This document shows positions 1,924 to 33,625 of a DNA stretch of 33,625 bases, one piece after another (within the stretch, counting starts at the first letter, position 1; every line of letters begins with the position of its first letter). The notes beneath the pieces are model-generated. The model did no database searches and was not told the DNA's origin. It was given only the letters and a program-made list of their open reading frames with translations. The position numbers and the translations under genes were made by a program. Origin of the DNA: a virus (Duplodnaviria > Caudoviricetes); the IMG/VR virus record IMGVR_UViG_3300020388_000036, positions 1-33,625 of that record; one strand, written 5' to 3'.

Positions 1924-2091
1924 TTATCTAGTATTATCAGCTAACCACCAGATTAACTGCTGTATCATTTTCATTCCGTAGTATAAACCAAACCCTGAAG
2001 CAAACAATGATATACCATTGAATACAGGATTTAGATATACAATAGCTACTAGAATGAAAATGACTACGAGTTTATCAACAATTAAAGACAT
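1924..2091 (-). CDS. Small membrane protein, 55 aa (not in ORF track)
   Basis: Hand translation MSLIVDKLVVIFILVAIVYLNPVFNGISLFASGFGLYYGMKMIQQLIWWLADNTR*; GGAGA RBS upstream; one or two hydrophobic segments. Confidence 0.75.
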   Translation of the reverse strand: MSLIVDKLVVIFILVAIVYLNPVFNGISLFASGFGLYYGMKMIQQLIWWLADNTR

Positions 2092-2105
2092 ATTATTATC
2101 TCCAT

Positions 2106-2135
2106 AAAAAAAGGGTAGCCATTTCTGACTACCCT
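2106..2135 (-). terminator. Intrinsic terminator downstream of the 164-aa gene
   Basis: Minus strand AGGGTAGTC-AGAAAT-GGCTACCCT followed by a T run, just after stop codon 2143. Confidence 0.8.
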
Positions 2136-2142
2136 ATAATTA

Positions 2143-2637
2143 TTATTTTTTTAGTGAATCAAGATACTTCTCAGCAGATTCTAACCTTTTGTTCTGCGAT
2201 TCAGTATTCTCTTGACTTGAGGACTTCGGTTCATATGGAAGAGACTCACCTGTGATATCTTTAAAGATGCCTTCCATCTCTTTCTGAAGTGCCTTGTATC
2301 GTTCAATCCAAACCTCGCTGTTTTCAACTTGGTCTAGCAGATAGCTGAATGGCTCAGATTTGGATTTCCTATCGTGGATTTGCTCAATCTTTCTTGCGAT
2401 TGAACCTTGATGGGAATAGATAACACTTGTCGGAAATTTACATAGTGCTCGTAGAATCCTCATCTGCTCAATGTGTGAGGAAGTAACCTTGACATTGCCT
2501 GGATTAACTGGCTTGGTCAAATCATCATCATCATTGGTGAATGGCTCTAAAACAGATGCAATCCCCTCAACACACGAACTAAGTGATTTAAAGTTAATAT
2601 CTTTTGAATGTATTTTTTGTGTATTTGATTTAGACAT
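2143..2637 (-). CDS. Orphan 164-aa protein encoded in the left arm of the inverted repeat
   Basis: Intact ORF with AAAAGGAG RBS and its own terminator; charged, helical-looking C-terminal half; no family recognised. Confidence 0.85.
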   Translation of the reverse strand: MSKSNTQKIHSKDINFKSLSSCVEGIASVLEPFTNDDDDLTKPVNPGNVKVTSSHIEQMRILRALCKFPTSVIYSHQGSIARKIEQIHDRKSKSEPFSYLLDQVENSEVWIERYKALQKEMEGIFKDITGESLPYEPKSSSQENTESQNKRLESAEKYLDSLKK

Positions 2638-2827
2638 ATTTACTCCTTTTTGTTAGTTAATATCAAAATCGCCACCCTTATAGGATATGTCTACACCTAC
2701 AACAACAATACACCATCCCAAGGAAGTATGACGACGATGGCCTGTCTAAAAAAATATATGCAACAAACCAAGGAGTAGGGGAATTTCCCCAGAAATTCAT
2801 ATTTTTATGCATCCCCAGATGCCTTAA

Positions 2828-3459
2828 AAATTGTCCTACGACTATGGGATTGTTAGTATATATTTATTTAGATGTATTCGTTGTTGTAGGTGTAGCACAT
2901 ATCCTATGGTGGCATAATGATTTTGATATTAACTAACTAAAAGGAACAGTAAATTGTCTAAATCAGATGCCAAAAAAACATTCATAAAGATATTAACTTT
3001 AATGAACGCCCCCCAACACACATACTCCATATATGGGGATTGCATCTGATTTAGAGTCATTCAACTGATGTTCTTTGATGATTTGCCGTTAATCCAAGCA
3101 ATGGAATGTTACAGCCGAACTGAGCAGATGAGGATTCAAGAGTACAAATTTCCGTCAGTTTATCAATTCCCGAATGTTCAATCGCAATAAAGTTGTTATA
3201 CAAATCCACGAATCCAAATCTGAGCAGTTTAGCTATCTGCGACCTTTTATGTTGTAAACAGGGAGTTTGCGATACAAGGCCGTAAGAAAGAATGGAAGGA
3301 AGATTTATCGCAGGGGAGGTCGCACCATATGAACCAAGTCCGACAAGAGAATCTGAATCACCAGAACAAAAGTATCTGCGAAGTTCTTGATTCACTACAA
3401 AAATTAATTATACATAGGTAGTCGGACTTGGCGTTTTTTAATGGGAGTAATCATATGTC
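2828..3459. repeat. Right arm of the inverted repeat: non-coding degenerate mirror of 2087-2786
   Basis: The + strand here follows the sense sequence of the 164-aa gene and its flanks in short blocks separated by indels. The RBS is interrupted (AAGGAACAGT), the ATG is lost and the frame is broken. Confidence 0.93.
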
Positions 3460-3510
3460 ATAACACAACGCCTTTCGGAGTATGTTGACTTTTTCAACGA
3501 TACTTGATAT

Positions 3511-3900
3511 ATGAAGAGTATGTCCGTTGCTAAACAAAAAGCAAACACGATTACTCCGAAAGCCCGAAAACTTGTTGATACGCTCGTAGCCTCTGGTTGT
3601 ACTATAACCGAAGCATCCAAAGTAGCAGGTTACAAGGGAAACAGTTCAAGAGTAAGTGCCTCCCGTATGCTACGAAAACCAGAGGTACAGCAGTATATGT
3701 TTGAGCAGATTCAGAAGAACCTTGGTATGTCCGCCGTCAAAGCACAACATAGACTACTTGACCTATGCAGTTCAGCTAAGTCGGAGTATGTACAGTTGGA
3801 AGCATCTAAGGACATATTAGACAGGGCAGGATTCAAAGCACCAGATAAACATCAGCACTTGGTCAAAGGAGATTTCAGTATTAACATAGACTTGAAGTAA
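3511..3900 (+). CDS. terS: Terminase small subunit
   Basis: HTH-like TITEASKVAGY...ASRMLRKPEVQQY followed by SEYVQLEASKDILDRAG, typical of TerS; first gene of the + strand block. The start may be ATG 3520. Confidence 0.8.
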   Translation: MKSMSVAKQKANTITPKARKLVDTLVASGCTITEASKVAGYKGNSSRVSASRMLRKPEVQQYMFEQIQKNLGMSAVKAQHRLLDLCSSAKSEYVQLEASKDILDRAGFKAPDKHQHLVKGDFSINIDLK

Positions 3901-24510: not shown

Positions 24511-26583
24511 ATGGCAACAGTTGATTTAGGAAAAATAAAGTTTACTTGGAGAGGTGCATTCTCTACGAGTAATACATACGAAGCAGATGATGTAGTGTCG
24601 CATTCTGGCTCCTCTTGGGTGTATGTAAATACTACATCTAAGACAGGAACAAATGCAGGAGCACCTTCCTCAACTAATACTACACATTGGAATGTAATGG
24701 CACAGGGTACAGGTACATTAACTACATCTGGTGATTTGCTTACACATAACGGATCGGTTGAACAACGAGTACCTATAGGTTCAACAGGACAGATTTTAAA
24801 AGCTAGTGGAACATCAATTACTTGGTCAAACTCTGATGCTTTTTATCAAGTAGATGTTTTAGGCAGTAATGTTCCTTTATATGCTAATACATTTAAAGCT
24901 ACTACTGATACAGGCACAGATGGTAAAAGACCTTGGTTAGCAGAATACAATGGTAAATCAGGTGCAAGTGCAGATTGGATTCCTTATGATGGTATGCCAA
25001 ACCCTGAATGTGGCCCTGTAAAAAGAGCAAGAGACGATATGCATAATGTCTATGCTTCACTATGTTATCTAAATGGTAATTATGAACCTGTTATGAGAGG
25101 GTATAACTATTTAAGTGCCGCACCTTTACCCAATGTGGCGGCTGATAATGTTGTACTAAAAAGTAAAATGTCTATGGAATTTGGTGGATTGAAGAGTGGA
25201 GAATACTTTGTTCGTCTGTGGAACAAAGGTGGTTCTTCTTGGGCATTAACAAACAAAGGTAATATGTTTGTTACAGGAGAGAATGGTAGTGGTGAATTAG
25301 GATTAGGAGATACAGTAGATAGATACCAATGGGTTAAGAATCCATATTTTGGGCCAGATGCAACTAACAATAGTGTTACTTGTGAAATTGCTTGTATAGT
25401 ACCAAATTGGTTCGGAGGTTATCAATGGACTACAAATATAAGAGTATTTGTTATTTTACACGATGGCAGAGTTATGGCTTTTGGTCATAATGCTCAAGGA
25501 CAATTAGGAGATGGTACAACTAATGCAAGGTCTGTACCTACTGTAATCACAGGTATATCAAATGTTAAAATGATATCTGCAGGAATGTATTGTACTTGGG
25601 TTGTAGATAATAGTGGTAATTTATTTCATTGTGGTAGTGATACTAATGGTGTAGGTGGTGGTACTGCTCGTCAATCTTTTGCACAACTTTCAGGAGTAAG
25701 CAATGTTGAACAAGCTGAATTGCATTGTATGGGATATTATTCTTCTGCTGTATCAGCACAAGGCTATGTTATACAAGCAAATGGTGATTTATTTTCCATT
25801 GGTTATAATACTAATGGTCAATTAGGTATTGGTAATACAACTGATCAATCAGCGTTTCAACAAGTTGGAGGATCTGAAAACTTTAGTGCTGTAAATATTA
25901 CAGGTAATCCATCAACATCTTCTGCTGTGCTTTGGTTAGGTAATTCAGATGCAAGCAATGCAAATACAACAGATGGGCCGGGTGATATGTATCAACTTAC
26001 TATTGCTACAAATACAGGTAATGGATTTAGAATGGTTGGATATAACGGCAACGGTGCTCAATTACAAGGAAATACAACAGCTACTACAGGTGTTAATATA
26101 CCTTCTACTGCTACATTTAATACTTATCAACACTATACAGTTAACTCAAGTGCTGATGGTACAATTAGTAAAACTGCATTAGTATTCCCATCAACAACAA
26201 TGAAGGCTTGTTTTCCAATGAGAACAAGTGGTTATAATTCACCGGGGTGGTATGGTTTAGATACACAAGGTCGTTTATGGTTATGGGGATATCATTCTAC
26301 TGCACACCCATATCAAGCTACAACAAGTGCTACAAGTTATTATGGTGCATTTTTATATCCTTCGCCTTGGAATCATACAGAATCATCAGGTTCTAGCTAT
26401 ATAGGTAATACAGATATTGCAATAGAAGATTTTATATCAATGGGACATTATTATAGTGGTTATTGGTCGCATTATATTCGTGCATCTGATGGAACAATAT
26501 ATGGCTATGGTAATAACTATTATTACAATTTAGGATCAACTGTTAATACTAATTATTATGGTTGGCATAGACTTAGACCATAG
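24511..26583 (+). CDS. Tail spike / receptor-binding protein with RCC1-like repeats
   Basis: Repeats GENGSGELGLG, GHNAQGQLGDG, GYNTNGQLGIG; N-terminal DLGKIKFTWRGAF...YEADDVV module; AGGAGG RBS. Confidence 0.85.
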   Translation: MATVDLGKIKFTWRGAFSTSNTYEADDVVSHSGSSWVYVNTTSKTGTNAGAPSSTNTTHWNVMAQGTGTLTTSGDLLTHNGSVEQRVPIGSTGQILKASGTSITWSNSDAFYQVDVLGSNVPLYANTFKATTDTGTDGKRPWLAEYNGKSGASADWIPYDGMPNPECGPVKRARDDMHNVYASLCYLNGNYEPVMRGYNYLSAAPLPNVAADNVVLKSKMSMEFGGLKSGEYFVRLWNKGGSSWALTNKGNMFVTGENGSGELGLGDTVDRYQWVKNPYFGPDATNNSVTCEIACIVPNWFGGYQWTTNIRVFVILHDGRVMAFGHNAQGQLGDGTTNARSVPTVITGISNVKMISAGMYCTWVVDNSGNLFHCGSDTNGVGGGTARQSFAQLSGVSNVEQAELHCMGYYSSAVSAQGYVIQANGDLFSIGYNTNGQLGIGNTTDQSAFQQVGGSENFSAVNITGNPSTSSAVLWLGNSDASNANTTDGPGDMYQLTIATNTGNGFRMVGYNGNGAQLQGNTTATTGVNIPSTATFNTYQHYTVNSSADGTISKTALVFPSTTMKACFPMRTSGYNSPGWYGLDTQGRLWLWGYHSTAHPYQATTSATSYYGAFLYPSPWNHTESSGSSYIGNTDIAIEDFISMGHYYSGYWSHYIRASDGTIYGYGNNYYYNLGSTVNTNYYGWHRLRP

Positions 26584-33350: not shown

Positions 33351-33625
33351 TTTCGTACTACTATTATACTATTAATATTCTACTATGCAACAAGTTCTTG
33401 CCATTGTTTTGAACCTAATGCTTTAGCTACTTCATCTTCTCTGCGCTTACGAATGGCGTGTCCACGCTCTCCGTCAGTATGAGTAGACCAATAAGTAAGA
33501 GCATTGTATAACGCCCACTTTGTACTACCAAGCGTACGACTTTCACGATCAAAACCTTCAAGTAATGTTTCTGTTCTCGTTACATTGAATGGTATTGAGT
33601 TAGATGAACGCTTGAATGTTTTAGC
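33351..33625 (+). repeat. Terminal direct repeat, copy 2 (contains the 3' end of a variant DUF932-like allele)
   Basis: Matches 1-275 with 12 substitutions. Confidence 0.97.

Follow-up and report, generated by a model that had tools for sequence, protein, structure and literature searches.

The window, by which we mean the whole 33,625-nt stretch of DNA analyzed, contains one long imperfect inverted repeat (1.37 kb, positions 2087–3459), the only one in the 33.6-kb record, and sequence comparisons support the + strand, which is the template strand of the gene it contains, as the strand selected to fold. The repeat runs from the promoter region of a leftward gene of 164 amino acids to its terminator, its arms have changed in a compensatory way, and the same design is found in many relatives. 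The explanation we favour, to which we would give a probability of roughly 60%, is a single-stranded DNA (ssDNA) promoter similar to the Frpo elements of plasmids that has been extended into a fold-back duplex gene and is read by the host sigma70 RNA polymerase.

The window represents a near-complete circular marine podophage that is pelagiphage-like. T7-like head-tail genes read rightward starting at terS (3511), the largest ORF (1,478 aa) encodes an internal virion protein, and the leftward recombination and replication genes include a YqaJ exonuclease, SSB, RusA, an HTH-DnaT-like initiator and DUF932, with no match to an RNA polymerase, DNA polymerase, helicase, primase or reverse transcriptase among the 36 proteins scanned. 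The inverted repeat sits in the divergent gap separating the leftward and rightward operons. Since the closest isolate is Pelagibacter phage EXVC031P Hodr (OQ414635; TerS 70%, TerL 81%, capsid 84%), SAR11 is the likely host. Matches to metagenome-assembled genomes (MAGs) were set aside as host evidence, being probably binned phage contigs; near-identical terS copies were seen in contigs assigned to MAGs of archaea and of Rhodobiaceae (L317 and L318), which are likely mis-binned phage. The features of the locus are as follows.

1924–2091, − strand: 55-aa ORF, next in the leftward operon, with its RBS and ATG within the outermost hairpin pairs
2087–2775, + strand: left (5′) arm, serving the leftward unit as template; pairing is good as far as ~2708, then come a bulge of ~32 nt and the inner helix
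2104–2135, − strand: terminator-like stem (2112–2135) plus T tract, of the intrinsic type, within the paired region
2143–2637, − strand: ORF of 164 aa with a predicted helical product, first in the leftward operon (early type)
2643–2648, − strand: RBS of the 164-aa gene, AAGGAG
2690–2885, + strand: apex module, with the inner helix, a bulge and two small hairpins at 2776–2825
2826–3459, + strand: right (3′) arm, shadow of the non-template strand, ~74% identical to the gene sense
3485–3513, + strand: terS promoter of ordinary sigma70 type, TTGACT-17-TG-A-TATATG, kept in close relatives
3511–3900, + strand: terminase small subunit (terS), first gene of the rightward late operon and anchor for collecting relatives

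The 164-aa protein had no match in PHROGs, Pfam, PADLOC, ESM Atlas, BFVD or PDB at an E value of 0.001. On the other side of the gap, the predicted start of the terS transcript coincides with the ATG at 3520, and its mRNA is likely leaderless. Read as template, the left arm holds a complete transcription unit, with promoter region, RBS, 164-aa ORF and terminator, and the repeat was assembled in one piece in four of four independent DNA runs. The arms aligned in 722 columns, of which 520 are matches and 129 contain gaps; the mismatches are 51 transversions and 22 transitions. In the right-arm shadow the RBS is altered, the ATG is lost near 2941–2957, 12 nt are inserted near 3003–3014, the copy of the terminator (3415–3441) is broken, and 42 of the 51 indels break the frame in that they are not multiples of 3. 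The apex module is common to the window and locus L300 (890–1200), whose first gene and shadow are unrelated. A co-occurring contig in run X8 has it as well.

Comparison with genome L006, which has 90% DNA and 78% protein identity to the window, showed compensatory change between the arms. The left base has changed in 53 Watson-Crick pairs, and in 31 of these the right base has changed as well, restoring pairing in 25; where the left base is unchanged, the right base differs in only 19 of 427 pairs. Both genomes share ~200 arm-specific columns, so the bulges are kept even as point changes are compensated. On this comparison, the repeat is maintained by selection and the shadow co-evolves with the gene, and because of the compensation a dead duplicate is excluded. 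The sequence-only reading had held that neither a dead duplicate nor a double-stranded DNA (dsDNA) cruciform would predict a strand bias; for the cruciform this is not strictly true, as only one of its arm pairs might be functional.

It had also been proposed, from a hand alignment, that about 9–10 transition-type differences give G·T pairs if the + strand folds, against about 2 favouring the − strand. All six examples named are + strand G·T pairs (2622/2969, 2625/2966, 2544/3057, 2447/3143, 2253/3310 and 2126/3424). The totals did not hold over the whole computed alignment (13 vs. 9, p 0.52), but did at sites flanked by two matches (8 vs. 1, p 0.04). Requiring one flanking match gave 9 for + and 7 for −, and seven further parameter sets with two flanking matches gave 6–8 versus 1 (p 0.04–0.13). 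The count depends on the alignment, and the bias in the window by itself is borderline and only suggests that the + strand folds.

Repeating the count in homologous genomes, which had been suggested as a check, made the + bias decisive. In an energy-free alignment of 76 non-redundant helices, G·T appositions outnumbered A·C by 109 to 8 and G·G outnumbered C·C by 31 to 2, with G·A versus C·T at 71 to 47 and A·A versus T·T at 35 to 37. Strand-neutral folds, in which G·T pairs were forbidden while folding and flanked 1 × 1 mismatches were then counted, placed G·T on the + strand by 40:2 in discovery (35 helices) and 61:3 in replication (41 helices). The result was much the same for helices taken from the minus-strand fold (40:3 and 64:3), and chance helices in late genes, used as the control, gave 47:26. 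A count of wobbles in 21 hairpins from relatives, after 4 of 25 hairpins were dropped as redundant, favoured + by 34:7. The skew at four-fold sites was small, and because of the G·G excess, deamination is not the sole cause of the bias. We take these counts to support the + (template) strand as the one selected to fold, in agreement with the earlier claim that the fold is not simply that of the gene's mRNA. Three other measures were discarded: the whole-strand minimum free energy (MFE) asymmetry (45/56 and 41/49), since late-gene controls behaved alike (40/46); an unfiltered wobble count of 520:178, which relied on + fold spans and was replaced by the strand-neutral counts; and one hairpin score whose background was too high.

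The relatives were found using terS as the anchor. The discovery set of 56 loci was reduced to 36–37 non-redundant loci, and the replication set of 226 loci to the 178 possessing a leftward gene and then to 49 non-redundant; related loci such as L023, L031 and L032 passed the 12-mer redundancy filter, and since the loci are not fully independent the p values given here are optimistic. Three loci (L016, L054 and L067) had few pairs in one fold analysis. Upstream of the first leftward gene, 65 of 79 loci have a helix of 40 bp or more, compared to 4 of 79 late-gene controls, and the slot left of terS is occupied by many unrelated first genes. At least 30 nt of the ORF is covered in 43 of 76 helices and the ORF is not reached in 26, and six helices cover the whole gene, starting 68–114 nt before the ATG and reaching 35–64 nt downstream of the stop codon, slightly past the terminator. 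These six hairpins belong to three unrelated protein families, one of which has four members that are 35–50% identical, each with its own matching shadow.

The cultured phage Hodr has the same divergent layout, with a hairpin (z −13.4) over the start of its first gene and partial coverage of the ORF; the hairpin carries no annotation in the record (OQ414635). Its first gene is a different one, of 147 aa, with ArdC downstream. ArdC comes after the cassette in the L023/Hodr clade, where a full gene (ArdcN and MPTase) is found in the early operon at 1580–2464 of L085 (Hodr) and 295–1176 of L023, and ArdC is described in the text available from PMC6222260 as an ssDNA-binding anti-restriction domain. 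In the window, DUF932 (33–941) has a place analogous to that of ArdC in these two phages. The gene layout at terS differs in MEP301.

The sequence-only reading had concluded that the structure implies either + strand ssDNA or a long + sense RNA, which our results support, and of the two the family-level evidence leans to DNA because GNA triloops are enriched without enrichment of RNA tetraloops and because TTGAC boxes face the gene. C-GNA-G triloop hairpins (stem of at least 4) were counted in 85 regions: there were 19 on the + strand compared to 1.2 in shuffles, and the − strand was enriched also (8 vs. 1.8 shuffled). In the same regions cUUCGg was found 0 times on the + strand and GNRA was at background; the GNA triloop is absent from the window's own hairpin. 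Mini-hairpins of the GCGNAGC type have far greater stability in DNA than in RNA and are known from N4 promoters and from ssDNA origins, according to the text available from PMC13037366. With Rfam covariance models, no locus of the 14 scanned, among them a copy of this phage (L005), reached the gathering score. The RNA-labelled sequencing runs covered (four of six) were contigs only; the one spanning the arms resembled DNA carry-over and the others had no arm coverage, so they are silent on strand and start site.

Three promoter-like sites in the window bear on transcription of the gene.

2890–2918, + strand: predicted fold-borne promoter on the right arm, GTGTAG (2890–2895), 17 nt, extended −10 TG-G-CATAAT (2910–2918)
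2881–2886 and 2905–2910, + strand: alternative register on the right arm, TTGTTG and TATGGT
2677–2705, − strand: putative weak promoter of ordinary type on the duplex of the gene itself, TTGTTG-17-TATAAG, of which 2677–2679 is a 3-nt template bulge in the fold

The ATAAT at 2914–2918 is an unpaired bulge that is missing from the left arm, and we infer that a fold-borne transcript would start near 2664 on the − strand. In L300, GTGAAA-17-TAGAAT is found in the same register as the right-arm promoter of the window. Promoter scores of the window's two arms are comparable (5.3 left, 5.4 right).

Across the relatives, TTGAC in the paired stem points from loop to base, toward the gene, on the right arm (11 vs. 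1 of 36 in discovery and 11 vs. 0 of 43 in replication). In the discovery set the right arm carries TAnnnT 16–18 nt past TTGA[CT] in 10 of the 12 anchored loci and the left arm in 0, and TA...T was the top right-enriched pattern among 415 (18:1), though it was also right-enriched in reverse orientation (18:2) and came to 10:8 in replication. Arm-specific −10s numbered 23:10 in discovery and 21:18 in replication, and the preset anchored −10 test failed in the replication set, with 0 right-only and 1 left-only among 16 anchored loci. The right-arm-only −10 signal is thus significant only in the SAR11-like discovery set; the phages of the replication set are GC-richer and more distantly related, and could conceivably follow different promoter rules. 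A naive best-promoter test in the discovery set was null (21:14, p 0.31), and with side loops removed the best promoter fell on the right versus left arm by 20:13 (sign test p 0.3, Wilcoxon 0.007). The dip in pairing at predicted −10s was weak (p 0.06), and bulges found only on the right frequently read ATAAT, ATATAAT, TAA or GAT. In four loci (L011, L020, L023 and L031) the −35 is complete only once a side hairpin loops out, and in four others (L012, L013, L015 and L016) the spacing of TTGAYM-TATGAT is 12 nt on the left arm versus ~35 nt on the right, where a looped-out side hairpin would set the promoter spacing only in the fold. The right-arm promoters of L048, L053 and L068 would work in dsDNA too.

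In the mechanism we propose, the + strand would fold back whenever it is single-stranded, with the mirror copy as a stand-in for the non-template strand, and the host sigma70 RNA polymerase would transcribe the gene from one folded DNA strand. The right arm would supply the −10 (in the window, the bulged TGG-CATAAT) as a pre-opened promoter. From what is generally understood of transcription mechanics, pairing over the RBS, ORF and terminator would displace the nascent RNA, so that ribosomes could load and the terminator could work. The frequent bulges may hold the palindrome under nuclease and recombination thresholds and stop the shadow from being a gene, and the shadow itself may have originated by snap-back copying primed at the apex. 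As a source of + ssDNA we favour 5′-to-3′ resection, at entry, of a genome end to the right of the hairpin near terS, for which we point to the phage's YqaJ exonuclease and SSB; alternatively, the strand could be displaced or serve as the lagging template in replication, in which case the same RNA could prime the − strand.

Other explanations have to be weighed against this one. The foremost of them, though improbable, is that the + ssDNA fold is mainly a priming, end-protection or packaging signal (an sso/ssi-like origin beside pac) with transcription secondary. Strand bias and DNA-type loops fit this equally well, terS adjoins the repeat, the proteins scanned include no match to a primase, helicase or polymerase, and Frpo-type promoters have been suggested to prime DNA synthesis in the available text of PMC12672017; it leaves unexplained why six hairpins end past the terminator and why the shadow tracks the coding sequence base by base. 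Next in order, and also unlikely, is a self-folded rod of long + sense RNA, antisense to the gene, that would serve as an RNA template, as a caged antisense RNA or, in the manner of 6S RNA, as a decoy for polymerase. The G·U and G·G preferences suit RNA as well as DNA, and the RNA MFE of the folded region is −648 for the + strand versus −617 for the − strand, but the loops are of the DNA type, Rfam gave no match, only a single weak rightward promoter-like site (2072–2099, 9/12) is found at the left end, and terS has a promoter of its own.

Less likely again is a right-arm promoter that fires rightward on dsDNA, its shadow RNA then invading the left-arm template (an R-loop, as a ColE1-like primer or roadblock) or serving as an mRNA decoy. 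Such a hybrid of + RNA and + DNA would have the same wobble sign, and several right-arm promoters are intact in linear form; against it, pairing reaches well upstream of the predicted start, the helices that stop short of the ORF are numerous, and some promoters exist only after loop-out. We consider it very improbable that the repeat is a functionless inverted duplication kept alike by gene conversion with strand-biased deamination, or a supercoil-driven cruciform. By reasoning, C>T and A>G changes on an exposed + strand would all give G·T, and hairpins can self-template; G·G is not a deamination product, however, the skew at four-fold sites is small, and the arm-specific columns persist between the window and L006 alongside compensated point changes. 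The cruciform is energetically unlikely because its cost of ~970 kcal/mol exceeds the relief of 186–668 kcal/mol.

Host-polymerase ssDNA promoters are established for conjugative plasmids, whose DNA arrives single-stranded. Those of IncF and IncI1 plasmids comprise Frpo1/2, ssi1-3 and classes 2/3, as set out in the available text of PMC9849209, PMC11541004 and PMC12672017. The phage element resembles them in being a long imperfect template-strand stem-loop just upstream of early establishment-type genes, with putative −35- and −10-like boxes and, in some relatives, an ArdC-type anti-restriction gene nearby. It differs in that the fold extends across the RBS and into the ORF, taking in the entire gene and its terminator in six cases, and evolves in concert with the coding sequence. 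The phage has a complete head-tail gene set, with no relaxase or transfer match among its 36 proteins and no oriT seen, and blastn of 2640–2960 against 72,556 plasmids gave no match. By analogy the element would work like Frpo, yet because it has no conjugative context and no sequence similarity we do not regard it as a member of that group. The likeness to coliphage N4 is that of a dsDNA podophage with a template-strand hairpin that is read and GNA mini-hairpin loops; in N4 the stem has 5 bp and the polymerase is the phage's own virion enzyme of 3,500 aa (available text of PMC13037366), whereas here the stems are 100–650 bp with host-type boxes, and an N4-type virion RNA polymerase had no match in the phage proteins.

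A retron or diversity-generating retroelement (DGR) template is not indicated, with no reverse transcriptase among the 36 proteins in PHROGs and with arm differences that are indels and transversions. Long bulged rods holding a gene or promoter mimic are known from 6S RNA, HDV- and Obelisk-type rods and the hok/sok fold-back mRNA; the present fold differs from these in that the folded strand is antisense to the mRNA, has DNA-type loops and has no Rfam match. We found no report of such phage hairpins in the literature searched (main texts only, with few subscription papers), nor any description there of a whole-gene shadow strand, that is, of a self-supplied non-template strand.

At the first early gene of these tailed marine phages the design is both widespread and under selection, and this would imply that their entry or replication includes an ssDNA stage that has gone unrecognised. 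It is possible, and we put this forward tentatively, that a large and abundant group of tailed marine "dsDNA" phages has a single-stranded phase at the first early gene and a full fold-back duplex gene, the shadow being rebuilt with each gene swap behind a portable apex module. Since Hodr, a cultured relative grown on HTCC1062, carries the hairpin, the idea is directly testable, and the variable first genes under the hairpin are candidate first-strike anti-defence or takeover proteins against SAR11.

Some further observations were made on the record. Its ends (1–275 and 33351–33625) overlap by 275 nt with 12 substitutions and 0 gaps, which is probably a strain-mixed circular join and not a mapped terminus. 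In 197 records, 16 contig ends fall within 100 nt of terS, compared to 4–11 per other bin; this was rejected as a sign of a terminus, as an assembly break fits equally. A 690-aa tail-fibre-like protein with RCC1-like repeats is encoded at 24511–26583. Lastly, a small hairpin at 1803–1866, in the intergenic region 1543–1923 upstream of a 106-aa gene, is conserved in L009, L010, L011 and L042 and could be a second fold-borne element.
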